Below, piece by piece: positions 15,398 to 63,315 of a DNA stretch of 64,000 nt. Both the position numbers and the translations under genes were made by a program. Positions within the stretch are counted from its first letter, which is position 1; the number at the start of each line of letters is the position of its first letter. Location: positions 6,159 through 70,158 of the forward strand of contig CAZHWM010000025.1 in the NCBI GenBank assembly GCA_964535935.1, read 5' to 3'. Source of the stretch: an uncultured Planctomycetales bacterium. GTDB taxonomy: Bacteria > Omnitrophota > Gorgyraeia > Zapsychrales > Zapsychraceae. The notes below the pieces were generated by a model, which was given only the letters and a program-made list of their open reading frames with translations, was not told the DNA's origin and did no database searches.

Positions 15398-15464
15398 ATT
15401 CTGCACAATTTAACCTTGTTGATTTGTGCATTTTTCACTATTTAACAAGGTTAAATTGTGAAAT
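15398..15464. repeat. Palindromic intergenic repeat, copy R1 (right end degraded)
   Basis: attctgcacaatttaaccttgttgatttgtgcatttttcactatttaacaaggttaaattgtg-aaat. Same family as the copies at 17844, 35164, 39503, 43689, 50909 and 60066. Confidence 0.9.
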
Positions 15465-16239
15465 AAGAATTAAGTATCTGTTCATATAATTGTTTTTGTT
15501 TTACATTTTTTTTCAAAATACCTTCAATAATTTCTATATCATCCGGTCTATCAACACCTGCTGTATACTCCTTTGTAATTACAGCTGAAATAGTAAAACC
15601 ATGCTCTAATATCCTCAAAAAATCTATAGATTCTGCCTGCTCCAAAGGAGTAGGAGATAGGCTTGCAAATTTATGCAGAAAGTCTTTTCTAAATGCAGAA
15701 ATCCCTGTCTGACGATAAAACTGACATTTACCTTTAACACGCTGATATGGAATAGCAGCTCTTGAAAAATATAATATATGTTGTTTATTGTCTATAATAG
15801 TTTTTATAATATCAATATCATTAAGATCTGCCTCATTATGAATAACCGAAAGTAGGTTGGCACAATTAATACTATCGTCTTTTAACAAAGGAGCGACCAA
15901 TTCATCGATTATCTCTGGAAAAAATAACGGCTCATCTCCTTGCAGGATCACTATAATATCCGCATCCATCCCACATGCAGCTTCCTCCACTCTATCAGTA
16001 CACCTCTCATGTGTATCAGAAGTCATAACCGCTCTTCCGCCATAAGAAGAAACTGTCTCTATAATAACATTATCACAGCTGGCAACAATTACGTCATCAA
16101 CACAAGAACACAACATAGCTCGTCGCCTAACATGCTCTATCATAGGCAAATCAAGGATCTTCTCCAAGGGTTTACCCGGGAACCTGGAAGATCCCATTCG
16201 AGCAGGTATGACAGCTACTATTTTCTTATTTCTATTCAT
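15451..16239 (-). CDS. CMP-ulosonic acid synthase family cytidylyltransferase (KdsB-like)
   Basis: KIVAVIPARMGSSRFPGKPL..I...PMIEHV, VIVILQGDEP and FYRQTGISAF are KdsB/CTP_transf_3 signatures. ATG 16239 forms an ATGA overlap with the stop of the upstream SDR. The last codons and the stop lie in repeat R1. Confidence 0.85.
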   Translation of the reverse strand: MNRNKKIVAVIPARMGSSRFPGKPLEKILDLPMIEHVRRRAMLCSCVDDVIVASCDNVIIETVSSYGGRAVMTSDTHERCTDRVEEAACGMDADIIVILQGDEPLFFPEIIDELVAPLLKDDSINCANLLSVIHNEADLNDIDIIKTIIDNKQHILYFSRAAIPYQRVKGKCQFYRQTGISAFRKDFLHKFASLSPTPLEQAESIDFLRILEHGFTISAVITKEYTAGVDRPDDIEIIEGILKKNVKQKQLYEQILNSYFTI

Positions 16240-17003
16240 TGTGGTAAGACTCCGCAATCAACATTTATAGATTGACCTGTTATAGCAGAGGCCTTCTCAG
16301 AAGATAAAAACAGACAAACCTCAGCCACCTCTTCAGCAAGTGGAAGCCTCTGTAATGCAGACTGGCTTTTTGCAAACTTCTTCAAATATTTCATAACATC
16401 CATACCTGCTGCAGGTGATACCTTTTCTTTTAAGGCAGCAATAACCCCTTTGGTTTCCACATACACAGGACACACTGCATTGACACGAATCCCGTCATGA
16501 CCTAACTCCTTTGCCAATGCCTGTGTTAAACCAACTATACCAAATTTCGAGGCACAATATACAGAATTATTAGCACTTCCTCTTTTCCCTGCCAAACTAG
16601 AAATATTTATTATACATCCGCCTCTTTTTAAGTATCTTGCGGCTATCTTACATCCCCAAAAAGTTCCCTTGAGGTTCGTGTCTATCATCTCATCCCAAAA
16701 AGAGTCTGTCACATCTACTATAGGCATCCATTTTGAAAACCCTGCACAATTTACATAAATATCCAGCCGTCCTGTTTGCTTCAATGCACGTTCCGCCAAA
16801 CGGATATGCCCTGACTCACGGCGTACATCCATCTTTACAAAATACACTCCCTTACCTAATTCATTAGCTAAACCACTATCATTTCTAGAGCCAACAAAAA
16901 CATTCATATCGTTGTCATAAAATTTTTTTGCTATAGCAGCACCTATACCTTTAGTGCCACCAGTTATAACTACTGTTTTTTTACTTTCATTCACAACAAC
17001 CAC
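16236..17003 (-). CDS. Short-chain dehydrogenase/reductase (FabG-like)
   Basis: 255 aa. Has TGGTKGIG and a YCASK catalytic Y-x3-K. Confidence 0.88.
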   Translation of the reverse strand: MVVVNESKKTVVITGGTKGIGAAIAKKFYDNDMNVFVGSRNDSGLANELGKGVYFVKMDVRRESGHIRLAERALKQTGRLDIYVNCAGFSKWMPIVDVTDSFWDEMIDTNLKGTFWGCKIAARYLKRGGCIINISSLAGKRGSANNSVYCASKFGIVGLTQALAKELGHDGIRVNAVCPVYVETKGVIAALKEKVSPAAGMDVMKYLKKFAKSQSALQRLPLAEEVAEVCLFLSSEKASAITGQSINVDCGVLPQ

Positions 17004-17046
17004 CTCTTATTCTAAAAATTATATTATTTATTTTTAAGGCTCCACT

Positions 17047-17829
17047 CTATATCGTCATACATGAAAAACCCCCATCTACTGTTATCTCAGCTCCAGTAAC
17101 AAAACTAGCCGCATCTGAACAAAGCCATATAACCGCACCTATAAGCTCTTCTGGCCTACCATACCTTCTCATAGCAGTATGAGATAAAATTGCATCCTGT
17201 CTAGGTTTATCAATAAAATGCTTCATACTCCATTTTGTAGGGAAAAATCCTGGCCTTAAGGCATTAACCCGCACATTAAAAGGTGCCCATTCCCGTGCAA
17301 GATTCTGAGTCAAATTTTTAACCCCTGCCTTGGCAACAGAATAGCTGAATGCCTTAGACAAGGGAGGGCCTGCAGACGCAGATGACATATTAATAATAGC
17401 ACCTCTTTTTCTCTTTAACATATGAGAGCCAAAAACCTGACAACCTAACAAAGTAGCTGTTACATGAGAATCGATTATTGCATGCCATTCATCCAGAGTA
17501 ATATCTAACACAGGAGTAGGGGCATTAATCCCAGCACCATTTATCAAAATATCCACCCGATTAAAACATGACAATGTTTCTTTCAAAGCCTTCTCATGAT
17601 CACCTTTTTTAGTCGCATCTGCAACAACACTTAATACCTCTGCCCCCAAACGATGTATCTTCTTTTCCATCCGCTTTAACCCCTCCTTATTCTTATCCAT
17701 CAAAACCACACGTGCCCCTGCCTTTGCCAGTCCGACTGCCATATGCCCACACAAATAACCAGCAGAACCTACTACCACAGCAACCTTTTTCTCAACACTA
17801 AATAATTTAGACAAATAATCTCCTACCAT
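17047..17829 (-). CDS. Short-chain dehydrogenase/reductase
   Basis: 260 aa. SDR fold with NGAG, SSAS and YSVAK (Y-x3-K) motifs. Confidence 0.86.
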   Translation of the reverse strand: MVGDYLSKLFSVEKKVAVVVGSAGYLCGHMAVGLAKAGARVVLMDKNKEGLKRMEKKIHRLGAEVLSVVADATKKGDHEKALKETLSCFNRVDILINGAGINAPTPVLDITLDEWHAIIDSHVTATLLGCQVFGSHMLKRKRGAIINMSSASAGPPLSKAFSYSVAKAGVKNLTQNLAREWAPFNVRVNALRPGFFPTKWSMKHFIDKPRQDAILSHTAMRRYGRPEELIGAVIWLCSDAASFVTGAEITVDGGFSCMTI

Positions 17830-17843
17830 CTAATCCCCCTTCT

Positions 17844-17912
17844 ATTCTGCACTATTTAACCTTGTTGATTTGTGCATTTTTCACTATTTAACAAGGTTGA
17901 ATTGTGCAGAAT
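17844..17912. repeat. Palindromic intergenic repeat, copy R2
   Basis: 69 bp: attctgcactatttaaccttgttgatttgtgcatttttcactatttaacaaggttgaattgtgcagaat. TA dinucleotides sit at both junctions. Confidence 0.95.
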
Positions 17913-18536
17913 AAAACTTTTTATCTCAAAAAAGTCTCTAAAAATTGAGAAATCAACTATTCCAAAATCCTTGCCACTAAAACGACCCATAAAGTGGACT
18001 CCTGTCTGCATTGCTGATTTATAATCCTCAGGGCTATCTCCAATAAACACTGCCTGATCACTCCCTATACCCTCTCTTTTTAATATATCTCTTATTGCAT
18101 CTGGCTTCTTCCATGGAACTGGATACACATCTTTAAAGTATCCACTTAAGCCTCTTTCTTTTATAATTTTATCCAATTCATCTTTAGGATTTACAGAAAC
18201 CACATAAATAGGAACCCTTTTATAAAAATAATCAAGAAACTCTACACTGCCAGCCACAGAAGGACAATTAATAATATCATCCACAACTAACTGGGAATAC
18301 CTTTCACTTAAATCTTGTTCTATTTCTTCCGTGTAGTCAATACCTAATATATTCTCAAATATATATTTAAACTTCTCAAATCTGATTACTGCATTATGTG
18401 AGAGATGGTACTGCATAATTTCTTCTACATGCTCTGGATAGTCAGAAAAAATCTCCTTAAATGCCCTATCCTTAATACCTACTGATTCCACTAACACTCC
18501 ATCAAAATCTAATATAATTGTGCCAATACCCTTCAT
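17856..18536 (-). CDS. HAD-superfamily phosphatase
   Basis: 226 aa. TIILDFDGVLVES is HAD motif I (DxDGV) and FIGDSPEDY is motif IV. The last ~19 codons (LHNSTLLNSEKCTNQQG) and the stop are encoded by repeat R2. Confidence 0.8.
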   Translation of the reverse strand: MKGIGTIILDFDGVLVESVGIKDRAFKEIFSDYPEHVEEIMQYHLSHNAVIRFEKFKYIFENILGIDYTEEIEQDLSERYSQLVVDDIINCPSVAGSVEFLDYFYKRVPIYVVSVNPKDELDKIIKERGLSGYFKDVYPVPWKKPDAIRDILKREGIGSDQAVFIGDSPEDYKSAMQTGVHFMGRFSGKDFGIVDFSIFRDFFEIKSFILHNSTLLNSEKCTNQQG

Positions 18537-19333
18537 ACACCCCTCTCTCTCTTCCGTTTATGTATTAAATCATCCATAGCCTCTGACCATTTCCATAATA
18601 TAAATATATCTGAGGCAAGTACTACAAAATTAAACCCCTGATTGAATGCATTATCTATACTCTTACTATCAGGGACGACTATCTGCGTCCCACAAGATAC
18701 CTTTTTCTGAAGGCATATATCAAGAACATACCTACATGCATCTATAACCTTACTGTGGTTCAATTGTCCAGGGATGCCTAACGAACCTGAAAGATCATAT
18801 GGGCCAATCATAATCCCATCGACATTAGGACTTGAGACAATCTTTTCAATATTATCTACTGCATCTATGGTCTCAATCTGTGCGATAAGTATACACACTT
18901 TATTCCACTGCTGGGTATATTCCTCGAAATCAAATCCATACCCATGTGCCCTTGCAACACCATAACTACGGCTGCCTTCAGGAGGATATTTCATCCATGA
19001 AGAAATCTCATCAATCTGTTCTCTAGAAGAAATCATAGGGACAATCAACCCATCCGCTCCTGAATCTAATAACCTCTTTACTATCTCCATATCATGAGTA
19101 GGTATCCTTGGCAGACATAATCTACCCATTGCCTGAGCAGCAGCTATAATCCTCTGAGATTGTTCCTGATTTATAGTGCTGTGTTCTATATCAATACCTA
19201 TAAAATCGAAAGAGGCCTTGCAAAAAATCTCTGTTATGGAAGGATGGTAAAGGGATGTCCAAGCGGCAAATATGTCTTCCTTGTTTAAAAATCTCCTTTT
19301 CAGCAAGGCACGGCTCTTTAACAATTCCTTCAT
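18533..19333 (-). CDS. HpcH/HpaI family class II pyruvate aldolase
   Basis: 266 aa. FIGIDIEHS, LDSGADGLIVPMISS, YPPEGSRSYG, AQIETIDAV and MIGPYDLSGSLG are collinear with HpaI/HpcH aldolases. Confidence 0.82.
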   Translation of the reverse strand: MKELLKSRALLKRRFLNKEDIFAAWTSLYHPSITEIFCKASFDFIGIDIEHSTINQEQSQRIIAAAQAMGRLCLPRIPTHDMEIVKRLLDSGADGLIVPMISSREQIDEISSWMKYPPEGSRSYGVARAHGYGFDFEEYTQQWNKVCILIAQIETIDAVDNIEKIVSSPNVDGIMIGPYDLSGSLGIPGQLNHSKVIDACRYVLDICLQKKVSCGTQIVVPDSKSIDNAFNQGFNFVVLASDIFILWKWSEAMDDLIHKRKRERGV

Positions 19334-20016
19334 GAGGCACTCTCTCCCTTGGCTGCATCATCCAAAAACATCTTAACAGTCTCTTTAGAATAAGGGTGAA
19401 CTATCATCAACTCTATAAATTTAGGGACAACGGTCACAATATGGGCCCCTGCATTTAACCATTCAACAACATTCAAAACCTCCCGTGTTGATCCAACAAT
19501 AATCTTTGCCTTTAAATCGAATTCATCCAGTAGAGCTCTTATCTTCATAATCTCATCAACTGCATTATATCCCATATTATTAACCCTGCCGCCAAATATC
19601 GAGACATAACTTGCCCCTGCGAGTGCAGCAAGCAGACATTGTTGGGCACTCATCATTGCAGTAACATTGACACGAACATCATGCTTGGTCTCTAATTCAT
19701 GAACGACTTCTAAATTATGTAGTTCTCCTTGGGGACCATGTATGGTAATCTTAACATTGATGTTATCTGCCCAGCTTGCCATCTCTCTTGCCTGCTTTAA
19801 CATCTGTTGTTTTTCATTAGTCGTAACCTCCACTGATAATGGAAGCGGACTAATAAGCTTGGCAATCTCTATGGTAGATTTCTTTATCTCTTTCATGCCT
19901 CCCTTGATACCTGATTTGAGCAAAATAGTAGGATTAGTAGTCACCCCTCGTATAATCCCCATATGCAGATATTTTCTAACTTCTTCAATATCACCTGTAT
20001 CTAAAAAAATAGCCAT
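19330..20016 (-). CDS. Transaldolase family protein, fructose-6-phosphate aldolase/TalC subtype
   Basis: 228 aa. MAIFLDTGDIEEV....GVTTNPTIL, the NVKIT Schiff-base Lys context, and VSIFGGRV. Confidence 0.88.
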   Translation of the reverse strand: MAIFLDTGDIEEVRKYLHMGIIRGVTTNPTILLKSGIKGGMKEIKKSTIEIAKLISPLPLSVEVTTNEKQQMLKQAREMASWADNINVKITIHGPQGELHNLEVVHELETKHDVRVNVTAMMSAQQCLLAALAGASYVSIFGGRVNNMGYNAVDEIMKIRALLDEFDLKAKIIVGSTREVLNVVEWLNAGAHIVTVVPKFIELMIVHPYSKETVKMFLDDAAKGESAS

Positions 20017-20104
20017 CTCTTCCTCCTGAATTTATGCTATAAATTATATTGTTAACTAAGTCTAACTACCTGCTGAACAATAGCAAAACATTCTACCTCA
20101 ATAT

Positions 20105-20716
20105 TTACTCACTACCATCTTCAGAAACAGACTCCCATTTATTCTTCATCTGCATAATCCTAAAATCAGATATTATCAGATGCCAGATAACTGCCTGAAA
20201 AGACTCTGCATGCGGAGTAATAGTATCATCTGCCACAGTAGGGACTATTACACATGCATCTGCAACCTTTGCTGTATATCCTCCATCTCTACCTACTATT
20301 CCCAAAATCCTTGCTCTCTGCTGTTTTGCATACTCAAGAGCATATACGAGATTAGCACTAATATTCTTCTCTTTATTACCCCCCCCTACAGAAAAGATAA
20401 ACACCCCGTCTCTATCACACAGTTTAGACTGCTTTAGCCACTCAACAAATACCGTATGCCATCCCTCATCATTTGTACGTGCAGTGAGTTCTGCCACATT
20501 ATCCACTGGAGTATATGCCTCAAATCCTCCTATCTTACGAAAATCATTAACAGCATGAGAACAATTGGCTGCACTTCCTCCAACACCTAAGAAAAAGATC
20601 CTTCCACCTTCATTTCGAACATCTATCAGCAAATAAATCATCTTCTCTATCTGAGATTTATCTATTTTTTCTATAATACTTACCGTTTCTTTCAAATAAC
20701 GCTCAACATAAGACAT
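20105..20716 (-). CDS. SIS-domain sugar-phosphate isomerase (GmhA/phosphoheptose isomerase-like)
   Basis: 203 aa. GGRIFFLGVGGSAANCSHAVNDF, and size and architecture like GmhA. Confidence 0.78.
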   Translation of the reverse strand: MSYVERYLKETVSIIEKIDKSQIEKMIYLLIDVRNEGGRIFFLGVGGSAANCSHAVNDFRKIGGFEAYTPVDNVAELTARTNDEGWHTVFVEWLKQSKLCDRDGVFIFSVGGGNKEKNISANLVYALEYAKQQRARILGIVGRDGGYTAKVADACVIVPTVADDTITPHAESFQAVIWHLIISDFRIMQMKNKWESVSEDGSE

Positions 20717-20726
20717 ATAAGGCTCC

Positions 20727-21740
20727 TTATCTTTTTCTTAATAAAATCCTTCCATAGGAACTTAGTAGATTCGTCTGTAAGAACTCCTGAAATGCATCTC
20801 TTACATTTCTATCTTTAGACTCTATAATACTTCTTATAAACCTTGATATCTTGATATCAGGATTATGCTGAATAGCATTTAAAACAATATCTACATCCAA
20901 AATCCCTGGAGTACTAAACTCCAGACAATCAAAATTAAACCTATCTGCAATTATCTTGATTGCCTCCATTGAAAATACATTTAGCCTATCTGGTGGATAC
21001 AGATTTTCCGCATGTTCCCAAAGCTCCAATATATCAAAACCTGATGACAAAATAGCAGTAATAAAACAAAGCCCATCTTGTTTTAACATACGAGTTATCT
21101 TTGCAAAAAAAGCATCAATATCCGAGACATGCCCCAACACATCAAACAGACTGACAACATCTACCTCATTATCAATCTGACCATTAGCAAGATCTTTATC
21201 AAATAAAACAAAAATGTTATCTTTCTCAAATGAAGATTGCCTTACATACGGAGAAAAAAGGGTCTTTCTTGCAAATAAATCTGTCTTTGCTATCTCATCA
21301 ATATACCCATAATGACTGGTATTAACATCTACCCAATGCCTTGCTCCTGGCAAATATTCTATAGTAGAATCGATTACCCAATCAACCCTTGGCTTTATAA
21401 TCTTTTCTTTACGCTTTTTATCTGTTGAAGTGGATAATTTCTCCTGCCAAAACTTCCGGGCTGAGGAATTAAGATAATAATCATTCAATACTGAATCATC
21501 AGGCCTAGGAGATATATAAAGTGTCTTACAATGCATACATTCTTTATACTGCATCCCGAATCGTGAAAAGGCGAATTGTGTCAATTGCGAATTACATGCA
21601 GGACAAGGGATATCCCGCAACTCATTGTTCGCCAAAAATTTACCAATATCCTTTCTAGTAAGGCTTATATATTCCTCTAATAAATCAGCAGGTTTAAAAT
21701 CCAGCTCATTAAACTCGTCAAAAACAACAATGTTTTTCAT
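20727..21740 (-). CDS. Methyltransferase-like protein with N-terminal Cys4 zinc ribbon (tentative)
   Basis: 337 aa. Has CPACNS...CMHCKT. VDVVSLFDVLGHVSDIDAFFAKITRMLKQDGLCFIT resembles class I MTase motifs II-III. The GxGxG SAM motif is not obvious. Confidence 0.5.
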   Translation of the reverse strand: MKNIVVFDEFNELDFKPADLLEEYISLTRKDIGKFLANNELRDIPCPACNSQLTQFAFSRFGMQYKECMHCKTLYISPRPDDSVLNDYYLNSSARKFWQEKLSTSTDKKRKEKIIKPRVDWVIDSTIEYLPGARHWVDVNTSHYGYIDEIAKTDLFARKTLFSPYVRQSSFEKDNIFVLFDKDLANGQIDNEVDVVSLFDVLGHVSDIDAFFAKITRMLKQDGLCFITAILSSGFDILELWEHAENLYPPDRLNVFSMEAIKIIADRFNFDCLEFSTPGILDVDIVLNAIQHNPDIKISRFIRSIIESKDRNVRDAFQEFLQTNLLSSYGRILLRKR

Positions 21741-24081: not shown

Positions 24082-24090
24082 TTTATCCAC

Positions 24091-35144: not shown

Positions 35145-35163
35145 CAAAAAATCCTTCCTATCT

Positions 35164-35231
35164 ATCCTGCACAATTTAACCTTGTTGATTTGTGCATTTT
35201 TCACAAATCAACAAGGTTAAATTGTGCAGAA
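35164..35231. repeat. Palindromic intergenic repeat, copy R3 (perfect 28-bp stem)
   Basis: atcctgcacaatttaaccttgttgatttgtgcatttttcacaaatcaacaaggttaaattgtgcagaa. The left and right arms are exact reverse complements. Confidence 0.95.
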
Positions 35232-35243
35232 CGCAAAATAGGA

Positions 35244-35526: not shown

Positions 35527-36762
35527 TTATTCATTTTTCTGCAAAATTAAAACACAATTAATCCCTCCCCGACCTCTATTAATAACCATTGCATTCTTTA
35601 TATCTTTATATTGAGCCTTATTAGGACAATAATCAAGATCACAGTCAGGATCTGAGTCAAAATAATTAATTGTAGGAGGGACCATCCCATGTTCCATGGC
35701 CAATACTGTAGTAATTACATCAACTGCTCCAGAGGCACCAAGCATATTACCAAAAACAGACTTTGGTGCAGAAACAGGAATTTTCTTAGCCCTATGCTCG
35801 AACACATTCTTTATTGCTTTTGTCTCTGTTACATCCCATATATCCTTTGCAGCACCGTCCGAACAAATATAATCAATGTCATCTGGTGCCAATCCTGCAT
35901 CATCTAAAGCCATCCTCATTGCCCTTGCAAGTTCAAAACCATCCTCTGCTGGATTAATCCGGTCCACTCCATCAGTTGTAGTACCAAATCCAATAATATC
36001 TGCATAAACCTTAACTCCCCTCTCCTCAACTCTATCTGGCGGCTCAAGTATTAATATCCCTGCACCTTCAGCAATGGCAAAACCATCACGATTTCTATCA
36101 AACGGACGATAAGCAGTTTCAGGGGTATCATTACGTCTGGTTAACATACCTGAAGTATTACAACACAACAAAGCATATGGAGTAACAGGGGCCTCCATGC
36201 CTCCAGCCAAAATAAAATCATTTTTGTCATGAACCAAATTCTTGGCTGCATATGCTATTGCCATTAACGAACTTGCTCTGTCCGCAACAAAGGTTTTACT
36301 ATAGCCTTTTATTCCATATCGTATAGATACCTGCCCTTGCGGCGCCGCAGGGAACCACGCAGAGGCCATAAATGGACTGACCCCCTCCCTACCTTCCAAA
36401 TAAAGGTCCCTTAACTCTGTCTCTGCATATAACCATCCCCCTATAGCATTGCCCATAAATATACCAACGCGATCAAGATTTCCTTTTGATAAATCTATTC
36501 CCGCATCTTCTATAGCCAATTCTGCTGCAACTAAAGCCATATGCGAAAAAAGATCTATCTTCTTCAATAAACGAGAAGAGACATTACTATAAGCCTCAAG
36601 TTCTTGTACATGCCCTGCTATATGCGAAGGATATTTAGATGCGTCAAAACGCTCTATCTTCTGAACAGCAGATCTACCTGCCTTAATATTTGACCAAAAC
36701 TTCCGTTTATCAATCCCACTTGGGCTAATTATCCCCATACCTGTAATAGATATTCTTTTCAT
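35527..36762 (-). CDS. Ketosynthase beta / chain-length-factor-like subunit (catalytic triad replaced)
   Basis: 411 aa with a KS fold. Aligned by eye to the adjacent KS-alpha, active-site Cys becomes Arg162 (VADRASS, codon 36277-36279), the first His becomes Asp (SDGAAKD), and the second His becomes Asn (KSVFGNMLGASG). PVSAPKS..G and NRGRGGINCVLIL resemble actinorhodin-type CLF. Confidence 0.85.
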   Translation of the reverse strand: MKRISITGMGIISPSGIDKRKFWSNIKAGRSAVQKIERFDASKYPSHIAGHVQELEAYSNVSSRLLKKIDLFSHMALVAAELAIEDAGIDLSKGNLDRVGIFMGNAIGGWLYAETELRDLYLEGREGVSPFMASAWFPAAPQGQVSIRYGIKGYSKTFVADRASSLMAIAYAAKNLVHDKNDFILAGGMEAPVTPYALLCCNTSGMLTRRNDTPETAYRPFDRNRDGFAIAEGAGILILEPPDRVEERGVKVYADIIGFGTTTDGVDRINPAEDGFELARAMRMALDDAGLAPDDIDYICSDGAAKDIWDVTETKAIKNVFEHRAKKIPVSAPKSVFGNMLGASGAVDVITTVLAMEHGMVPPTINYFDSDPDCDLDYCPNKAQYKDIKNAMVINRGRGGINCVLILQKNE

Positions 36763-36837: not shown

Positions 36838-38100
36838 TCACTCGAATCGCTTCAAAACCATTGCAGAATGTATTCCTGAAAACCCACTACTGGTCTTTAA
36901 CATATAATTTACCCTCTTCTCCCTTGCCTTATTAGGGACATAATCTAAATCACATTCCGGGTCCGGGAATTCTTGATTAATCGTAGGAGGCAAAATATTC
37001 CTCTCAAAAATAAGCGCTCCAATTGCTAATTCAATACCATTCGCACCTGCTAATGGATGTCCTATCATAGATTTTAATGAACTTATAGGGATTTTATAAG
37101 CATAATTGCCGAAGACCATTTTATAAGCATTTGTTTCAAATACATCGTTTTGCCTTGTAGAAGATCCATGCGCATTAATATAATCTATACACTCCGGATT
37201 AATACCTGCATCTTCTAAAGCGAGCCTGACACATGCCGCCTTAGCCTCTCCTGACGGAGGCAAATCAGTCATATGATAAGCATTACATGTGGTTCCAAAC
37301 CCCACTATCTCACAATAGATACGTGCACCTCTCTTTAAAGCATGTTCCAGTTCCTCAACAACTAAGAGACCTGCACCTTCAGATATTACAAATCCATTCC
37401 TTTTTGCATCAAACGGCCTAGATGCCTTTTCAGGCTCATCATTGTGCGTTGACAATACATTTACAGTATCGAATGCACCGAATGTTATAGGTGTAAGAGG
37501 TGCCTCGCTTGCCCCAGTAATCATAACGTCTACCTCACCATCCTGAATTGCTTCATACGAAAATCCTACACAATCAGTACCGGCAGTACATCCTGTAGAT
37601 ATCGTATTACAAATCCCTTTCAATCCGTACTTAGCCGCTATCTCGCTTGAAGGGGTATTAAACATGGCAGCATCATATAAATCAGGCCTAACTATTGTAG
37701 GATCAATAGGATTTTTCCCACTATCTGTAACAAGCGCAAACTCCTCTTCCATATACTTTGTCCCGCAGATAGCATTTGCAAGAGATACTCCCATCCTCTG
37801 CTTATCTACCTTGTCAAGATCAAGCATAGAATCCTGCAGTGCCATGTCTGCGGTAACCATAGCAAACTGTACATAACGGTCCATACGTATGGCATCCTCT
37901 TTAGTTAACCCATATTTTAATGGATCAAAATCCATCACCTGTGCTGCTATCTTTGTATTAAACATCGACACATCAAAATCTGTAACCCTACGTACAGCAG
38001 AAATCCCATTAATCATGGAATTCCAACACGCCTCCTTACCAATACCATTCGGCGCAATAATCCCCACACCTGTTACAACAACTCGTCGTTTTTTCTCCAT
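36838..38100 (-). CDS. Type II polyketide synthase-like ketosynthase alpha
   Basis: 420 aa. RRVVVTGVGIIAPNG, active site ISTGCTAGTDCVG, TCNAYHMTDL, DYINAHGSSTRQND, SLKSMIGHPLGANG and PDPECDLDYVP. The HGS.TRQND and PECDLDYVP motifs match KS-alpha of aromatic PKS rather than FabF (HGTSTPxGD). Confidence 0.88.
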   Translation of the reverse strand: MEKKRRVVVTGVGIIAPNGIGKEACWNSMINGISAVRRVTDFDVSMFNTKIAAQVMDFDPLKYGLTKEDAIRMDRYVQFAMVTADMALQDSMLDLDKVDKQRMGVSLANAICGTKYMEEEFALVTDSGKNPIDPTIVRPDLYDAAMFNTPSSEIAAKYGLKGICNTISTGCTAGTDCVGFSYEAIQDGEVDVMITGASEAPLTPITFGAFDTVNVLSTHNDEPEKASRPFDAKRNGFVISEGAGLLVVEELEHALKRGARIYCEIVGFGTTCNAYHMTDLPPSGEAKAACVRLALEDAGINPECIDYINAHGSSTRQNDVFETNAYKMVFGNYAYKIPISSLKSMIGHPLAGANGIELAIGALIFERNILPPTINQEFPDPECDLDYVPNKAREKRVNYMLKTSSGFSGIHSAMVLKRFE

Positions 38101-39450: not shown

Positions 39451-39502
39451 AATCCCCTCCCATTAAAATTATATATAACTTCCTATCCCATTCTATCCTG
39501 CT

Positions 39503-39571
39503 ATTCTGCACAATTTAACCTTGTTAAATAGTGAAAAATGCACAAATCAACAAGGTTAAATCGTGCAGAAT
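39503..39571. repeat. Palindromic intergenic repeat, copy R4 (opposite orientation to R2)
   Basis: attctgcacaatttaaccttgttaaatagtgaaaaatgcacaaatcaacaaggttaaatcgtgcagaat. TA at both junctions. Confidence 0.95.
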
Positions 39572-39584
39572 AGAAAATTAAAGA

Positions 39585-42097: not shown

Positions 42098-42604
42098 TCA
42101 AACAACATTTGTTACATACCTTAACGGTACAGCTTCCAAAAGAGGGACATATCCCCTAATCCCTCTAGGCGCAACCCTTATGCCATTAAAATTAAAAATC
42201 TCCTTTTCATCTGCAAACTGTCCACTTTTACTACTGGCGTACGATAAGAATACCGGCACATGATGTCTTTTTGCCAAAACAGATAAAATTAACCCACCTA
42301 CAAGACACACAGCCTCTTCACCATCTCTATCCTGATAAGAAAGCCATACCTCCTTGACCATATGCTTAAAAAAAAGGAATCCTGCCATATTATCAGATAT
42401 TATTACAGGACGTATCCCTAATTTAAGAAGATGCCTGCACGCATGCTTTAAAGACTTAAGGGTCGGTCTAGCTTCCAACACAAAGACCTTCTCAATTTGC
42501 TGTTTCTTCAACCTAACGAAAAACTCATCTTCAAAAAACCCATGAATGATAACAGAACCTTTATTGTCTATATCATCTTTATTATTTATAGTACTTGAAG
42601 ACAT
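42098..42604 (-). CDS. Short eIF-2B/MtnA-family paralog (C-terminal Rossmann-like domain only)
   Basis: 168 aa. VFVLEARPTLKSLKHACRHLLKLGIRPVIISDNMAGFLF...VPVFLSYASSK...VPLLEAVPLRYVTNVV is collinear with the C-terminal half of the adjacent full-length MtnA-like protein (ATETRPYMQGAKLT..EL...G..VTLVADNA...IPFYAL...PAFDVVPRKYLT). Confidence 0.5.
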   Translation of the reverse strand: MSSSTINNKDDIDNKGSVIIHGFFEDEFFVRLKKQQIEKVFVLEARPTLKSLKHACRHLLKLGIRPVIISDNMAGFLFFKHMVKEVWLSYQDRDGEEAVCLVGGLILSVLAKRHHVPVFLSYASSKSGQFADEKEIFNFNGIRVAPRGIRGYVPLLEAVPLRYVTNVV

Positions 42605-43660: not shown

Positions 43661-43688
43661 TTTAGGGTCCTTAGGGGCTAATTCTGCT

Positions 43689-43757
43689 ATTCTGCACTAT
43701 TTAACCTTGTTAAATAGTGAAAAATGCACAAATCAACAAGGTTAAATAGTGCAGAAT
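43689..43757. repeat. Palindromic intergenic repeat, copy R5
   Basis: attctgcactatttaaccttgttaaatagtgaaaaatgcacaaatcaacaaggttaaatagtgcagaat. TA at both junctions. The 8 nt immediately upstream (attctgct) nearly duplicate the element terminus. Confidence 0.95.
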
Positions 43758-43760
43758 AGA

Positions 43761-47588: not shown

Positions 47589-47615
47589 GCACAATTTAAC
47601 TCTGCTGACTTATAC
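47589..47615. repeat. Degenerate half-unit remnant of the palindromic repeat
   Basis: gcacaatttaac matches the repeat exactly. The following 15 nt match at about 9 of 15 positions. Confidence 0.3.
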
Positions 47616-47646
47616 AATTAAAACCCATTTAAACACCACCCAACTC

Positions 47647-50901: not shown

Positions 50902-50908
50902 CTTCCCT

Positions 50909-50977
50909 ATTCTGCACGATTTAACCTTGTTGATTTGTGCATTTTGCACAAATCAACAAGGTTAAATCGTGCAGAAT
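50909..50977. repeat. Palindromic intergenic repeat, copy R6 (near-perfect hairpin)
   Basis: attctgcacgatttaaccttgttgatttgtgcattttgcacaaatcaacaaggttaaatcgtgcagaat. TA at both junctions. Confidence 0.95.
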
Positions 50978-50993
50978 AAAAATTACGACTATT

Positions 50994-56403: not shown

Positions 56404-56446
56404 TAGGCTATCTAACTTAAGCCATTAATATTAATTTTTCTCTTAC

Positions 56447-56533: not shown

Positions 56534-56608
56534 AGAGCTTCCCCCCGTTTATAATAGCCATAAAACAAAAAACGTTATCAAATAAAATAATAAATTATTA
56601 GCATCTTA

Positions 56609-57031: not shown

Positions 57032-57094
57032 TTTCTTCCCCCCTTATTTATAAAAATTAAAAATAACAAACAAAATAAATTTACACCGTATTTA

Positions 57095-57853: not shown

Positions 57854-57922
57854 CTATAATTTATTATTATATCATTATAGGGATAATTTTTCTAACAAAT
57901 TGCGAGGAAAATACCCATTATA

Positions 57923-60049
57923 TCAACGGCTATATCTTCTCCATATAAACACCCCCAGCAAACAGATACAAATTGGAATTAAAACCAAAATAATTGCAAC
58001 AACAGCCCTTTGCCTACTTGTTAACCGCAACCTCTCTATTTTTATCTTTCCACTATCTACCAACATATTATAATCGGTTTCTGACAACCATTTAATCACA
58101 TTAAGTCCCATCTCCGCATTACTATAATCACTAACAAACGCATTACTTAAAAAATCTGCATCTGTAAATACAACTATCCTAGTCGTAGATTTTTTACCCT
58201 TACACTTAGGTTCTGCTATCACATAAGCTATAGGTATTGGTCCTGGTTTATCAACTCCTTCATCAAATTTAACTTTAAGCATACGATTCGTTTCAGCCCA
58301 ACTATTCCTTGATGATGCAGTCAAAACCAAAGGTGCAACAAGTACAGACTTTCTCCTATTCTTTAAAAGAGAAATCGAACGAGGCCTTATATAAAAAGTA
58401 TAATCTAACCCCGACACAATAGCCTTATGCGGCATATAATTTCGTGTAGCAGGACATCCGACATCACTCCCAACATGGTTAGACAAATCTATAACTATAT
58501 CACTACCTATATTAATCCCCCAATAATTCAATATACCATTCAATGAAGGATTTTTTCTTTTTTCCTCTTCAGTAAGAGGCCGATCAGGAGTAGTGACGAC
58601 AGTATGTTCTATCAAAAATAAGGCATCCCCACCCTTCTTTAAATATGACTGTATAATATTCTCCTCTTCCTTTGATAAAAAGTCACTAGGACCAGCAATA
58701 ACCAACACATCACAATCATCTGGGATGTTTTTATTGATTCCTAACATAAGAGGCATAGCTACGAAGTTATTCTCCTCTAGAAGCTTAGCAAAGGTACTTA
58801 AACCACGCTTCGAACTATCATTAATACTATACTCTCCATGTCCTGTAAGAAAATACACCTTTACCTTTCTTCGTGTCACCTGAATAATTCCATGGTTTAA
58901 CTGTGCTTGAGAGAGAGGGGCATTACTAAAATCTATATCCTCCCGAAGTTTTCCTGACTGAACAATAACCTTATTCTCTTTGCCATTTATAACATTTCCA
59001 AACTGAGCGGCATAACCTATATCAACAAGAGGATCTATAATCTTATACGAAACCTTGCCTGCTGACAGCCTTACATACTCATTAAGCATATCCTCTAAAT
59101 ATTCTGGAGGTACCCCCACATAAAACACGGTCAACTTAACATCCTGCTTAAGTTCATGCAACAAAGACAATGTTTCCTTAGCTAACGTATGCTGCAGGAC
59201 CCTTGTCATATCCCAGCGAATATCATGCCTATAAATCAAATAATTTCCAAACACCAACAAACAAAATATCCCTATTATCTCACAAACAGTCAAAAAAAAC
59301 GCTATACACCTTCTCTTTACAAAAAATAAAACATTATCTCCCACATCTCGCAATTTATGAAGGCTAAAAATAGTAAAAAATAGACAAACCAATATACCAC
59401 TAATAAAATAAAAAACATCTGCCAACGTAATAAGTCCTGAAAACAGATCCTGAGAATGAGTTGTTATCCCTATATAATGAACCACATCCTTCATAAGACC
59501 GCCAACATAATTATTAAAAGCAACAGAAAAATACAAAAAGAAAATAAAAACATAAGAGCTAATTGCAGCTACAATCTGACTACGGCTCCAACTTGAACAC
59601 AACATACCAATAGCAATAAATAATGCCCCCTCAATCCATATACCAACATAACCCGACAAAACAGAAAGTCTATCAGGATTAGAAAAATACTCTATTACAG
59701 CATAATAAAAAACCGTCAATATGATAATCAAAGAATAAAAACACAATGCTCCCAGATACTTACCAAAAACAATAACTGAAATCCGGGTAGGAGTAGTCAA
59801 AAGCAATTCCATAGTACCAGAAGCCTTCTCCTCTGCAAAGACCTTCATAGTCAATATAGGAATAATAAAAACAAAGAGAAATTCCATAACCTTAAAAACA
59901 TCCCTAAGACTAGCCTCATGATTTTCATCCAATATCATAAAGAAAAAAACATTAAATACAGATATAGTTAATACTAACACTATATAAGCAATAGGCGATT
60001 TAAAATATGCCCCCAATTCCTTTTTAACTATAGATAAAACCTTTCTCAT
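57923..60049 (-). CDS. ABC-2 type permease fused to a GldG-like ABC-transporter auxiliary domain (GldF-GldG fusion type)
   Basis: N-terminal ~240 aa: KKELGAYFKSPIAYIVL...FAEEKASGTMELLLTTP, an ABC-2/GldF-like permease. The rest (VYFLTGHGE, VLVIAGP, a C-terminal TM anchor) resembles GldG/ABC_transp_aux. ATG 60049 is preferred over the track GTG 60061. Confidence 0.68.
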   Translation of the reverse strand: MRKVLSIVKKELGAYFKSPIAYIVLVLTISVFNVFFFMILDENHEASLRDVFKVMEFLFVFIIPILTMKVFAEEKASGTMELLLTTPTRISVIVFGKYLGALCFYSLIIILTVFYYAVIEYFSNPDRLSVLSGYVGIWIEGALFIAIGMLCSSWSRSQIVAAISSYVFIFFLYFSVAFNNYVGGLMKDVVHYIGITTHSQDLFSGLITLADVFYFISGILVCLFFTIFSLHKLRDVGDNVLFFVKRRCIAFFLTVCEIIGIFCLLVFGNYLIYRHDIRWDMTRVLQHTLAKETLSLLHELKQDVKLTVFYVGVPPEYLEDMLNEYVRLSAGKVSYKIIDPLVDIGYAAQFGNVINGKENKVIVQSGKLREDIDFSNAPLSQAQLNHGIIQVTRRKVKVYFLTGHGEYSINDSSKRGLSTFAKLLEENNFVAMPLMLGINKNIPDDCDVLVIAGPSDFLSKEEENIIQSYLKKGGDALFLIEHTVVTTPDRPLTEEEKRKNPSLNGILNYWGINIGSDIVIDLSNHVGSDVGCPATRNYMPHKAIVSGLDYTFYIRPRSISLLKNRRKSVLVAPLVLTASSRNSWAETNRMLKVKFDEGVDKPGPIPIAYVIAEPKCKGKKSTTRIVVFTDADFLSNAFVSDYSNAEMGLNVIKWLSETDYNMLVDSGKIKIERLRLTSRQRAVVAIILVLIPICICLLGVFIWRRYSR

Positions 60050-60065
60050 ATCAATTACCACTGGG

Positions 60066-60134
60066 ATTCTGCACTATTTAACCTTGTTGATTTGTGCATT
60101 TTTCACTATTTAACAAGGTTGATTTGTGCAGGAT
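60066..60134. repeat. Palindromic intergenic repeat, copy R7
   Basis: attctgcactatttaaccttgttgatttgtgcatttttcactatttaacaaggttgatttgtgcaggat. Confidence 0.95.
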
Positions 60135-60151
60135 AAGAATTAACGCTCAAA

Positions 60152-61081
60152 CTAAGACATCAAAGATAAAAATACTTGTTCCAATCCTTTACGTTTTCTT
60201 TTCACTTCAAATATCTGTGCCCCTATGCCTAATAATCTTGAAATCAAAACATTACAATCATTAACCTCTGGGCAAAAACACACATCCAGACAAAAACCAT
60301 CTATATCTTTATCTTTCTGTATATTATAACTCTGCAACACATTTAGAGACTGCAACAAATTATTAACCTTATCTACTTCTGCTTTAAGATAAATAATAAA
60401 ACTATTTCCACTATCTGATACCGTCACTAAATCTGATAGAAGGGCATCTTTTAATATCCTCCCTTGATCTATAATTATCACACGTTTACTAATCATCTCT
60501 ATCTCGGAAAGTATATGCGTACTTAATATAACAGTACGACTGCCTTCTAACCCCTTAATCAATTCTCTAACCTGCACCACCTGTAGAGGATCAAGGCCGG
60601 CAGTAGGTTCATCAAGAATAAGCACCTGCGGGTCATTAATAATAGCCTGGGCTATTCCAACCCGCTGTCTATATCCTTTTGACAATATGCCTATAGACTT
60701 TTCACTAACATCCAACAATCTACACTCCTCTAACACCCTATCTACCTGTCCCTTAAGTTTATGCTTGGCCACATCTTTCATCTGAGCAACAAAACTCAAA
60801 AAATCACGTACAGACATATTAACATATAAAGGAGGAATCTCTGGCAAATACCCTATACTTTTCTTTACAAATAAAGGATCCCTATTTACATCATATCCAC
60901 AGACAGAAACCTGCCCTGAGGTAGCTGGTATATAACCTGTAATAATTCTCATAAGGGTTGTCTTCCCAGCACCATTCCTGCCAAGAAATCCAACAATCTC
61001 GCCTTTACCTATAGAACAAGACACCCCATCCAATACTTTAAAATTCCTAAAATATTTTACAACACCTGTAATTTCTATCAT
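60152..61081 (-). CDS. ABC transporter ATP-binding protein (GldA-like)
   Basis: GFLGRNGAGKTT is Walker A, LSKGYRQRV the signature, and LILDEPTAGLD Walker B. ATG 61081 (MIEITGV) is preferred over the track TTG 61108. Confidence 0.92.
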   Translation of the reverse strand: MIEITGVVKYFRNFKVLDGVSCSIGKGEIVGFLGRNGAGKTTLMRIITGYIPATSGQVSVCGYDVNRDPLFVKKSIGYLPEIPPLYVNMSVRDFLSFVAQMKDVAKHKLKGQVDRVLEECRLLDVSEKSIGILSKGYRQRVGIAQAIINDPQVLILDEPTAGLDPLQVVQVRELIKGLEGSRTVILSTHILSEIEMISKRVIIIDQGRILKDALLSDLVTVSDSGNSFIIYLKAEVDKVNNLLQSLNVLQSYNIQKDKDIDGFCLDVCFCPEVNDCNVLISRLLGIGAQIFEVKRKRKGLEQVFLSLMS

Positions 61082-61199
61082 AATTTTTCCCGTAAAAAAC
61101 AAAGTCAAAAATACAATAAACCACGAAATAGCTCTTATCTTTTATACAACAATTTATTATCTATTATTTCAACAACAAAAATACCTCAAATTGATATAA

Positions 61200-61751
61200 T
61201 TATCCTGACGGGACCAAAACTTTGGTAATAAGAACTGTAGCTCTAACAATATCTGAATTTCTACGTTTAAGTTTAAGGGTAATTTTCTGTGCGCGCAAAA
61301 GTTGCTCTGAGGTATTAATATTATATAAAAAACGTATTATAGAAGCCATATTACCCTCAATTTCGGCTTCATAAGAATACTCATAAACTATACCTTTTTT
61401 ATTAGGGGGTTGAGGTTTAGTGTCAACAAGATCCACCGAAGCACTATTTGCAATATCAACTATAGCACCATGTAGCCTAGAAGCCTCCTCTTCATCTGAA
61501 CCAGAACGTCTAATATGTAAAATCGTCTTACTATATACTTTTTTAACATTATCCCGCTGAGATAAAGTACGCAAATTGACCTCTAAGGCCTTCTCATTTA
61601 TACGTATATTATTATCTATCTCCTCCAACTTATTATTAATAGGAACAACAATTCCACTATAAACAAAAGAAATCGTCATTAACCCCCCACCTATAATAAG
61701 ACCTACCTTTTCCCTAGAGGATAATTTATTAAAAAAAGATAATATTCCCAT
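61200..61751 (-). CDS. PilO/GspM-like bitopic pilus-assembly protein (tentative)
   Basis: 183 aa. Short cytoplasmic N-terminus, one TM helix (VGLIIGGGLMTISFVY), a coiled segment, then a ferredoxin-like C-terminal region. Directly downstream of PilMN. Confidence 0.5.
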   Translation of the reverse strand: MGILSFFNKLSSREKVGLIIGGGLMTISFVYSGIVVPINNKLEEIDNNIRINEKALEVNLRTLSQRDNVKKVYSKTILHIRRSGSDEEEASRLHGAIVDIANSASVDLVDTKPQPPNKKGIVYEYSYEAEIEGNMASIIRFLYNINTSEQLLRAQKITLKLKRRNSDIVRATVLITKVLVPSG

Positions 61752-61798
61752 AAATTTCCTACTTATACTCCTATATCTTAATCTAAATTTAATAAAAA

Positions 61799-63253
61799 TT
61801 ACACCTTATTCTCATACATACAAACAACAGCAAAATCCGTATATTCCCCCTCTCTCGACTTTTTTGTTTTGGAATAGAGCGTCTTTACCTTTTCAAAATA
61901 AGGCGAAGACTCTAATATATCTACAAACCTTACCACACTTTGCATAGTAGTAGCTCTTCCCTTTAACTCTACAGAGTTTCTTTCCTGAATAGTGACATTA
62001 GTAAGATAAATATCATCAGGGATATTTTTATATATCTCAATAAGCAACTCAAGTGAACTCCCTCTGGCATCCTTCCTTTGTCTCAATAAAGCTATTCTCT
62101 TACGCATTAATTCAACATCTGCTGTTCCAGGCTCAGTTGCAGCTACGGCCTCCTTCAATTTTGCAGCATAACTATTTTTATTATATAAATATACAATAAC
62201 AATTAAAGACAAAACCATCATTATAGCTGCAAATAATACACCTATTATTGTAACCTGCTTTCTTCTCTCTTCCATACGACGCCTCAACTTTACTTCATCA
62301 GGCGTTAAATCCAAATCAATATTTTTATATCCTGCTGCAGCACCTAGAAGAGAACAGATTGAAACAAATCTAAAATCCCCACTCGATAAATATCCATCAT
62401 CCTTTATACGAATATTCCTATAAGGGTCGACAACCCCTACACCTATACCACATTTTTTCCTTAACAGATCATCCAATCCCTTAATATTAATTGCTGTTCC
62501 TGCTAAAATAATACGACCGATCTCTGTCATATCCTTCATCTCATTACGATACACCTCCATAGAACGTATAACGGCATCAATAAACTTATCCTGCCATTTA
62601 TCAGTCTCATCCATAAGATGATTGGCACCTATAAAAATATTACGAGTAAAAGATAATCTATCATTTCTAAGCACAATAATATCAGAATAATTAGAATCTA
62701 TATCTATTAACATAACATCCTGCATTTTAGACCAGTCTACAAGATCCTTACAGGCAAGATTAAACCAATTAAACACCCCCTCTGTACTCATTACAACCTT
62801 ATTTACTTCAATACCCGCACCAGCCATAGCATCTAAACGCTCCATAATAAGACTTCTACGTGCGATAACCAACATAACCTTAGTATACCCTTCCCTTTCT
62901 GAACCTATACGGGTATACGCAGACACTATGCCCTCTTTTGAATAAGGGGTTTGTTTACCAACCTGAAGACTAACCATATTATCTATCTCGACAGGATTTA
63001 TAGAAGGGAACTCAAGAATTCGAACAGTAACAAGATGGCGGGGTATATAAGTTATAACATCCTGTTTGCTAACCTTTAAATCCTTAAATATCTCCTCAAT
63101 GGCTGTAGAAACAGATCCACTTATCTGCGCAAGTTTCACCAATCTAATTTTTGTTATAACCCTTCCTGTCCGAGAAGGGCTATTTTCAGCCACCTTCAGC
63201 CAATCATTACCTATCTCGACAATAACAACAGACCTTTTAGGTTTACAAAACAT
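61799..63253 (-). CDS. Type IV pilus assembly PilM-PilN fusion protein
   Basis: 484 aa. The N-terminal ~310 aa is actin-like ATPase-fold PilM (VVIVEIGNDWLKVAE..., MLIDIDSNYSDIIV, ILAGTA). Then a TM helix (VTIIGVLFAAIMMVLSLIVIVYL) and a PilN-like periplasmic region (VELKGRATTMQSVVRFVDILESSPYF). Confidence 0.68.
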   Translation of the reverse strand: MFCKPKRSVVIVEIGNDWLKVAENSPSRTGRVITKIRLVKLAQISGSVSTAIEEIFKDLKVSKQDVITYIPRHLVTVRILEFPSINPVEIDNMVSLQVGKQTPYSKEGIVSAYTRIGSEREGYTKVMLVIARRSLIMERLDAMAGAGIEVNKVVMSTEGVFNWFNLACKDLVDWSKMQDVMLIDIDSNYSDIIVLRNDRLSFTRNIFIGANHLMDETDKWQDKFIDAVIRSMEVYRNEMKDMTEIGRIILAGTAINIKGLDDLLRKKCGIGVGVVDPYRNIRIKDDGYLSSGDFRFVSICSLLGAAAGYKNIDLDLTPDEVKLRRRMEERRKQVTIIGVLFAAIMMVLSLIVIVYLYNKNSYAAKLKEAVAATEPGTADVELMRKRIALLRQRKDARGSSLELLIEIYKNIPDDIYLTNVTIQERNSVELKGRATTMQSVVRFVDILESSPYFEKVKTLYSKTKKSREGEYTDFAVVCMYENKV

Positions 63254-63278
63254 ACTATTTTAAGACTCCATCACAATT

Positions 63279-63315
63279 ATCCTGCACAAATCAACCTGGT
63301 TGATTTGTGCAGGAT
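63279..63315. repeat. Solo half-unit of the palindromic repeat (37-bp perfect palindrome)
   Basis: atcctgcacaaatcaacc-t-ggttgatttgtgcaggat. The 18-bp arms are exact reverse complements and share cacaaatcaac/gttgatttgtg with the 69-bp copies. Confidence 0.85.

Follow-up and report, generated by a model that had tools for sequence, protein, structure and literature searches.

The 64,000-nt stretch of contig CAZHWM010000025.1 analyzed in this study (the window) contains a family of short palindromic repeats located between its genes. Seven copies are doublets (73 to 75 nt), in which two palindromic units are joined with their loops and terminal motifs (feet) inverted; the others are one solo palindrome (39 nt) and one decayed fragment. 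The copies, all located in spacers flanked by minus-strand genes, are as follows.

R1, 15396..15468: doublet of the type formed by repetitive extragenic palindromes (REPs), i.e., a REPIN; its high-coordinate foot is degenerate (GTGAAATAAGAAT)
R2, 17842..17914: doublet, 12 nt from the start of an SDR gene
R3, 35162..35234: doublet with a perfect 28-bp stem, in an ACP/cyclase gene spacer
R4, 39501..39573: doublet in the opposite orientation, with an additional 8-nt foot adjoining it at 39491-39500
R5, 43687..43759: doublet in the opposite orientation, in the spacer between PNP-family and MtnA genes, with an additional foot at 43678-43686
R6, 50907..50979: doublet, a perfect palindrome with a 34-bp stem
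R7, 60064..60136: doublet whose core is the master sequence that flanks a transposase gene on another contig (L018/L033, described below)
R8, 63278..63316: solo "double-foot" REP, a perfect palindrome with an 18- to 19-bp stem and the core CCTGG/CCAGG
Decayed unit, 47589..47619: upstream of a PadR-family gene

All of the copies recorded in the initial annotation are present at their positions. A repeat search of the window recovered a seven-copy family in register (starts at 15386, 17832, 35152, 39491, 43677, 50897, and 60054) together with the half-unit (63284) and the decayed unit (47589), and the core AACCTTGTT/AACAAGGTT occurs 14 times in the window, compared with an expectation of 0.55 and a maximum of 3 in 100 shuffles. 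As annotated, both orientations occur, R4 and R5 being opposite to R1, R2, R3, R6, and R7. The annotated length of 68 to 69 nt, on the other hand, falls short of the conserved span of 73 to 75 nt described below, and the 28-bp stem that had been given for both R3 and R6 is found in R3 only, the stem of R6 being a perfect one of 34 bp.

The spacers are short and the genes on either side are co-directional, as had been noted. On the transcribed strand, the element starts 0 to 38 nt past the upstream stop codon or overlaps that stop, ends a few to approximately 35 nt ahead of the next Shine-Dalgarno sequence and start codon, and fills most of the spacer. Two copies overlap the ends of upstream open reading frames (ORFs): R1 covers the final codons and the stop of ORF 15451..16257 (cytidylyltransferase by Pfam), and R2 extends over the end of the HAD-hydrolase ORF 17856..18536 (about 20 codons plus the stop), with the element-encoded parts at 15451-15468 and 17856-17914, respectively. 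The genes of the window are ordinary bacterial genes; Pfam assigns them to a large polysaccharide, nonulosonic-acid, and fatty-acyl cluster, methionine salvage, pyruvate kinase, a PadR regulator, an MNT/HEPN pair, two-component proteins, an ABC transporter, and PilM/N. The G+C content is 30 to 40%, and the GC skew is strongly negative throughout. All credible genes of positions 1-64000 are on the minus strand, with a GC skew of -0.16 to -0.46, and the corresponding loci of relatives are likewise one-stranded. No transposase domain was detected by Pfam scans of the window ORFs of at least 80 aa, in agreement with the annotation, and no tRNA or tmRNA gene was found in the window; an account based on an integration site is therefore inapplicable. 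Rfam gave no match in the window at gathering thresholds. At E values of up to 1, only sub-threshold look-alikes of eukaryotic microRNA precursors appeared, which were dismissed as a generic resemblance among long hairpins.

The anatomy of the element was defined by aligning 30 non-redundant doublets, taken from related contigs as well as from the window. The conserved span is (C)TATTCTG-CAC...GTG-CAGAATA(G), beyond which conservation is at background level. At the end of the element, conservation declines stepwise, from T (30/30) through A (24/30) and T (22/30) to C (12/30); the TA positions at the two ends are conserved in 22 to 26 of the 30 doublets (73 to 87%), and the outer C and G in 12 and 20 of them, respectively. 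The basic unit is an imperfect palindrome of approximately 39 to 41 nt with the foot CTATTCTG, arms of the form CAC-N8-AAC and GTT-N8-GTG, and a 3-nt loop, which is CTT or AAG. The arm of the unit is 11 nt long and is either CACNATTTAAC ("alpha") or CACAAATCAAC ("beta"), and the second arm is complementary to alpha or beta. In a doublet, an A5/T5 junction joins two of these units, whose loops and feet are inverted relative to each other, and the whole can fold as one long hairpin. The 30 doublets contain 16 core variants, with a single master variant accounting for 7 of the 30. Solos bear both feet and correspond to a doublet that lacks the inner 32 nt.

Folding energies of the single-stranded DNA range from -13 to -40 kcal/mol (z-scores of -5 to -15 relative to shuffles), and those of the RNA range from -21 to -58 kcal/mol, far more stable than shuffles; over the DNA and RNA folds together, the z-scores span -5 to -16. 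Covariation in the stem was examined in 17 solos from two lineages, with 500 shuffles and slid alignments as controls. The stem has 19 bp, 83% of the cells are paired, and both-sided changes are observed at 14 pairs; the covariation score is 0.381, compared with 0.178 for the shuffles (none of the 500 reaches the observed value) and 0.06 to 0.12 for the slid controls. Three internal stem positions are habitually mismatched in these solos, and the palindrome is therefore imperfect in a conserved manner. The repeats form a dispersed, intergenic family with hairpin potential and compensated stems.

Some doublets adjoin extra 8-nt feet in tandem, with the sequences TTCTATCCTG next to CTATTCTG, CTAATTCTG next to CTATTCTG, and CAGAATAAGCAGAATAAGTAGAATT, at window positions 39491-39508 and 43678-43694 and at about 2190-2215 of contig L004. 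They may record repeated events of cleavage, insertion, or excision at this motif.

The element is not confined to this locus. An exact-pattern scan of metagenome contigs returned 24 loci, mostly from Ga0256914 and VAPK01, these loci having nothing else in common with the window. With nhmmer and a regular expression for the unit, 30 non-redundant doublets and about 7 solos were obtained, about 37 sites altogether; outside the window, the element is present at about 30 distinct sites, which are spread over about 15 contigs from the same metagenomes. The density is approximately 1 element per 2 to 8 kb in the stretches examined. In 29 of the 32 sites with resolved flanking genes, the element lies between co-directional genes, 0 to 35 nt from a stop or start codon. 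The center of the element reads as an A-run on the coding strand in 21 copies and as a T-run in 7 (28 copies; two-sided binomial p of about 0.013), a bias compatible with targeting of the lagging strand or, alternatively, with counter-selection of terminator-like copies within operons. The exact-pattern scan of a one-genome-per-species collection, in which the source species is not represented, gave single chance matches and no doublet. A phage-borne element was considered and rejected, the same scan of viral contigs having returned single chance matches only and no doublet. Several metagenome contigs end at these repeats.

The initial annotation had read the repeats as REP doublets, and a search for a REP-associated tyrosine transposase (RAYT) was made with the E. 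coli RayT (NC_000913) against all stop-to-stop ORFs of the window, the loci, and the relatives' contigs. The single notable match is an ORF of 306 to 325 aa at 9411..10388 of contig L018/L033 (VAPK010939693.1). The ORF has one doublet on either side (9347-9423 and 10361-10436) and a third about 90 nt downstream (10528-10603); all three carry the master core, which is also the core of R7. A transposase gene bracketed by the termini of the window elements is therefore present, although outside the window, in which tblastn with this protein gave no match. Neither phmmer nor tblastn detected a second RAYT locus or another Y1 gene in all of the loci collected. As with R1 and R2 in the window, elements on this contig supply the final codons and stops of the genes upstream of them (9350-9375 and 10363-10388): the response regulator and the RAYT both terminate in "...CTNQPC*", which is encoded by the foot and arm of the element.

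The protein matches the Pfam family Y1_Tnp (PF01797) with 36 bits, above the cut-off of 23, and its best NCBIfam model is NF047646, "REP-associated tyrosine transposase" (70.8 bits, covering positions 3-146 of 146), while the IS200 model of NCBIfam scores only 16.6 bits. Among 40 homologues, His94, His96, Tyr153, and Asn157 are invariant and Pro158 is nearly so, which corresponds to the HuH and Y---NP motifs; Trp172-Ser173-Ser174 is also nearly invariant. The class-2 combination of HuH and Y---NP, the serine motif, and REPtrons (a RAYT gene with its flanking repeats) have been described (PMC6006769). The C-terminal region gives weak matches to helix-turn-helix (HTH) families, HTH_23 and HTH_11 (HTH_23 with an E value of 7e-4, below its cut-off), and homologues carry precomputed assignments to PF13384, PF13518, and PF02796. 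In the AlphaFold2 model (pLDDT = 81.8), the C-terminal residues 258 to 315 are helical. A fold search with this model gave E. coli RAYT in complex with a REP hairpin as the best structure in the PDB (4er8_A; E value = 3e-6, TM-score = 0.74, RMSD = 2.0 Å), ahead of the IS608, IS200, and ISDra2 transposases. A sequence search of the protein against the PDB did not recover 4ER8, which was found by the fold search alone.

The RAYT gene can be linked to the genome of the window through a second contig. An SDR protein of the window is 100% identical to one encoded on contig VAPK010783944.1 (L040), which is 99.91% identical to window positions 18303-12801 and includes R1 and R2, and this contig and the RAYT contig belong to the same assembly, GCA_006243085.1. 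The G+C content agrees (34.6%), and the divergence between the two lineages compared is similar at the two loci (81% nucleotide identity in the RAYT region and 83 to 89% in the window region). The linkage is strong circumstantial evidence that the RAYT gene belongs to the genome of the window, but not closed-genome proof.

In a relative, an ortholog with 84% identity (L034) occupies the syntenic position after a histidine-kinase and response-regulator gene pair and is flanked by the relative's own solos, which have the foot AAATGTCAC. All six spacers of this stretch are occupied in both lineages, by doublets in the lineage of the window and mostly by solos in the relative. Homologues with 48% and 54% identity in other Omnitrophota (L036 and L038) are bracketed by unrelated perfect palindromes of 39 to 49 nt, which recur 5 and 8 times in approximately 16.7 kb. 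Bracketing of the RAYT gene by elements is found in four lineages, whose palindromes differ from one another; in all four, the upstream palindrome ends 7 to 46 nt ahead of the RAYT start codon, and the downstream palindrome overlaps the stop codon.

The two more distant homologues (L036, 5720-6637; L038, 5862-6773) are located within an F-type ATP synthase operon, in the gap between the epsilon-like and delta genes in one genome and between the delta and c genes in the other. In both contigs, an 8-nt motif, (GGTTAGCC/GGTGAGCC)n, is also repeated in tandem in intergenic spacers, at 13739-13825 and 9063-9504 of L036 and at 9600-9637, 14202-14335, and 15147-15200 of L038. A perfect inverted repeat of 26 nt flanks the GIY-YIG gene at 9148-9441 of L036, within the atp operon.

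A 1-kb contig of the metagenomes (L010, 1-1032) encodes an MNT nucleotidyltransferase (526..855, minus strand) and a HEPN protein (195..557, minus strand) bracketed by two doublets, and this pair could be a REPIN-bracketed cassette. Both doublets carry an extra flank, TTTTTGTCAAATCACC, and the same flank, with about 70 nt in common, follows the doublet on the downstream side of the RAYT gene.

The behavior of the element at fixed positions was examined in relatives of the window. For the MtnA encoded beside R5, the best named relatives belong to Candidatus Omnitrophota, and an ortholog with 90% identity is found on contig L027 (GCA_054043285.1), which is syntenic with 53.7-33.0 kb of the window at 83 to 89% nucleotide identity. 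The sites shared with L027 are as follows.

R5 site: doublet in the window, perfect solo on L027
R3 site: doublet in the window, solo with a co-varied self-complementary foot (AAATGTCAC...GTGACATTT) on L027
R6 site: doublet in the window, degenerate solo on L027
R4 site: doublet in a 134-nt spacer in the window, empty 31-nt spacer on L027, the indel not being clean
47589 fragment: decayed unit in both

A comparison of 10 orthologous sites between the lineage of the window and the relative (about 81 to 89% nucleotide identity) showed lineage-specific forms at 9 of them and an empty site in the remaining case; solo/doublet differences are present at 8 orthologous sites. At the R5 junction, a third lineage (L030) carries a variant doublet in which both cores are jointly changed to CCTGG/CCAGG. 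In the three-way alignment of this site, the left junction AATTAAT/CTAT is identical in all three lineages, while the feet are TTCTG, TTTTG, and TCCTG, each compensated on the opposite arm. The elements are accordingly inherited at fixed junctions and turn over in form between solo, doublet, and absent. The decayed unit at 47589-47619 and its counterpart in the relative are about as similar to each other as the genes around them are; the unit may be an ancient remnant or may have been reused in the control region of the PadR-family gene. For the R1 and R2 sites, the closest homologue of the adjacent SDR protein outside the window's own strain is only 72% identical, and the polysaccharide cluster is probably not conserved in the relative.

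We consider that the repeats belong to a REP/REPIN-RAYT system (REPtron), in which non-autonomous elements on single-stranded DNA are associated with a single cognate HUH/Y1 RAYT with a C-terminal HTH, and we assign this reading a probability of roughly 0.85. The REP-doublet interpretation of the initial annotation is borne out by the dispersal of the family, the bracketed RAYT gene, and the polymorphism relative to L027. The RAYT, which is encoded elsewhere in the genome and bracketed by copies of the master sequence, most likely maintains and spreads the repeats. By analogy with the E. coli TnpA-REP and with IS608 (PMC3479197, PMC6006769), the RAYT would bind the hairpin into which the single-stranded DNA folds at the replication fork, its HuH/Tyr site would cleave at the foot, and subsequent re-ligation would result in the element being copied or moved. 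The same analogy suggests that solos derive from doublets via loss of the inner 32 nt. It is on these known systems that we infer transposition of the elements. Because they are located inside operons, the elements will also be transcribed as stable RNA hairpins; an effect on the mRNA is conjectural and would be secondary, and an exapted RNA role of the hairpins is possible.

Several observations weigh against this assignment. In the master variant, both units share one arm polarity (beta...alpha' twice), with inversion limited to the loops and feet; the long hairpin of this variant is weak as a result, with a DNA folding energy of -13 kcal/mol. The foot, (C)TATTCTG or CAGAATA(G), contains neither GTAG nor GTGG, and the canonical GT[AG]G tag is missing. 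The NF047646 score of 70.8 bits is under the curated equivalog cut-off of 80. The RAYT gene lies outside the window, and its assignment to this genome is made via co-assembly, identical repeats, and similar G+C content only. No excision or insertion event is directly observed in the sequences compared, and the R4 site provides no clean pair of empty and filled states, since the length difference is approximately 103 nt, of which the element accounts for 73. The long-term retention of the orthologous sites would likewise be shown by a motif under host selection.

Such a motif would be a cis-acting operon hairpin (an mRNA 3'-end stabilizer, an RNase processing site, or a site for nucleoid or topology proteins), on which the Y1 protein is incidental or inactive. 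It would account for the constant position of the elements just past a stop codon and just ahead of the next ribosome-binding site in co-directional gene strings, for 9 of 10 orthologous sites being kept at about 81 to 89% nucleotide identity, for the compensated feet in three lineages at R5, for the very stable RNA hairpins (-21 to -58 kcal/mol), and for the 21:7 orientation bias on the coding strand. However, near-identical 57-nt cores recur across functionally unrelated operons in a spectrum of a master and its variants, both orientations are tolerated, and the R4 site is empty in the relative. Pure regulation also does not predict a transposase bracketed by the repeat in four lineages with a different palindrome in each. 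Host selection on the hairpins fits a secondary, exapted role rather than an alternative origin, and we regard it as an improbable explanation of the family. It is less probable still that the hairpins are intrinsic terminators or attenuators that halt or pause transcription between genes, in fact the least probable of the explanations weighed here. The hairpins are stable as RNA, and on the coding strand of copies oriented like R4 and R5 a TTTTT run comes after the first unit, but 21 of 28 copies present an A-run instead of a T-run on that strand, the stems are A+T-rich, and the elements are within tightly packed operons whose downstream genes need read-through. A terminator scan of 34-52 kb called none of the elements; it called 11 sites elsewhere, a count no higher than in shuffles.

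The initial annotation had also allowed for a miniature inverted-repeat transposable element (MITE) of the IS630/Tc1-mariner type, in which TTCTGCAC...GTGCAGAA would be the terminal inverted repeats (TIRs) and the flanking TA a target-site duplication made by a DDE transposase encoded elsewhere. TA does adjoin both ends of most copies (22 to 26 of 30 per position), and the element is short, AT-rich, non-coding, and bounded by inverted repeats. The TA is nevertheless not invariant: it is part of a gradual decay of conservation that runs past it to the C/G (12/30 and 20/30), its positions pair within the stem foot, and at R5 it lies inside the CTAT junction conserved in three lineages. The solos have both feet and no internal sequence, and the main type of the relative, AAATGTCAC, is without flanking TA. 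No DDE transposase is present in the window, and elsewhere no other bracketed ORF was seen in the loci, whose ORFs were not scanned for DDE domains; it is a Y1 transposase that the element brackets. The comparison of empty and filled sites, which had been proposed for the duplication, revealed presence/absence and solo/doublet polymorphism relative to L027; a TA duplication read from the R4 pair was set aside, the indel not being clean, and the duplication is rejected instead on conservation and pairing. We therefore consider a DDE-derived origin very unlikely.

As a member of the REP/REPIN-RAYT group, the system most closely resembles the REPINs of Pseudomonas fluorescens SBW25 and its relatives (PMC3116915) in its doublets of inverted polarity that fold as one hairpin and outnumber singlets, its extragenic location, its master-plus-variants spectrum, its bracketed RAYT, and its vertical inheritance at fixed sites. 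The singlets can likewise be explained as doublets after an inner deletion, which, with the other defining features of REPINs, was described by Bertels and Rainey (2011; PMC3116915). In contrast to SBW25, there is no GTAG tag, the inter-unit spacer is 5 to 7 nt, the stems are A+T-rich, the RAYT is approximately twice as long with a C-terminal HTH, and the host is an uncultured member of the Omnitrophota. The element is not a canonical GTAG REP and is closer to the "atypical" and "double-foot" types (PMC6006769). With the E. coli REP/BIME and TnpA-REP system (RayT; 4ER8; Messing 2012, PMC3479197) it shares the fold of the catalytic core (TM-score = 0.74), the HuH and Y---NP motifs, imperfect stems with habitual mismatches, and the arrangement of a gene with flanking repeats as a REPtron. 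The identity to E. coli RayT is, however, only about 18%, that protein has 165 aa and lacks the HTH, and the E. coli REPs are G+C-rich palindromes of about 35 nt with a GT[AG]G tag.

The TIRYT/TIRtron group (Di Nocera 2013, PMC3733652), which equals TnpAY1 subclass 2.1 and especially 2.1.2 (Quentin 2018, PMC6006769), comprises long class-2 Y1 proteins that have a C-terminal HTH_23/HTH_28-like domain and share the WSS serine motif with the RAYT described here, and in TIRtrons, too, inverted repeats bracket the gene and extend into its 3' end. Among the TIR families, some are self-complementary, dimer-forming, and moderately abundant (Di Nocera 2013, PMC3733652), and Quentin et al. (2018; PMC6006769) found no REP-like sequences near subclass 2.1 genes. 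The flanks of the present gene, in contrast, are abundant REP/REPIN-like palindromes with no G-run and no GGGGWSAS TIR motif. The RAYT resembles subclass 2.1.2/TIRYT as judged on domain architecture alone, not phylogeny, and if this placement holds, the system is a REP-rich member of that subclass. The IS200/IS605 insertion sequences (IS608, ISDra2, and PATE derivatives) provide the mechanistic model of a Y1 HuH enzyme that recognizes subterminal hairpins on single-stranded DNA. They differ in that the gene here is not in a multi-copy insertion sequence, that its Tyr motif is Y---NP rather than Y---Q, that the IS200 model gives only 16.6 bits, and that the ortholog is at a syntenic chromosomal position. 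Bacterial MITEs such as Correia elements and IS630-derived elements are also short, intergenic, co-transcribed, and bounded by inverted repeats; no DDE parent was found here, the TA is part of the palindrome and not a clean duplication, and the whole element is one hairpin, whereas theirs consist of two TIRs around unrelated DNA.

To our knowledge, REP/REPIN-RAYT systems have been characterized almost entirely in Proteobacteria, and a literature search for Omnitrophota together with extragenic palindromes found no paper linking the two. The repeats would represent a known type of system in a new phylum, a candidate phylum represented by metagenomes only, with a dense, A+T-rich, non-GTAG palindrome and a longer, HTH-bearing transposase; they are not a new kind of system. 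The four lineages with their own palindromes, together with solos and doublets at identical junctions, constitute a natural series for RAYT recognition and for the in-place turnover of REPs, and the system tests whether the published view of subclass-2.1-like Y1 proteins as REP-free is too narrow. A wider proposal can be offered only tentatively, as we judge it to fall short of even odds: that this is the first abundant REP/REPIN population tied to an HTH-bearing class-2 Y1 (subclass 2.1/TIRYT-like), that such systems are general across Omnitrophota, four lineages each having a "double-foot" palindrome of ~40 nt around the gene in the same geometry, and that replacement or conversion in situ at existing sites prevails over random insertion. 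The last part is suggested by the sites being kept while the element is remodeled in a lineage-specific manner (solo, doublet, or changed foot), which would make in situ replacement or conversion the main mode. In practice, the repeats break metagenome assemblies and provide annotated genes with C-terminal tails and stop codons, and they could be used as lineage markers.

Other features of the window are minor. A segment of approximately 700 nt in the polysaccharide cluster (7630-8340) contains no ORF of at least 60 aa on either strand and may represent a decayed gene. Apart from the palindromic family, the sizeable direct repeats of the window (families D4 and D7) all come from a tandem pair of paralogous beta-ketoacyl synthase genes (35527-36762 and 36838-38100; about 71% identity). 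A 168-aa ORF at 42098-42604, which matches the IF-2B/MtnA family in its C-terminal half only, comes after the full-length mtnA-like gene, and the arrangement is identical on L027.

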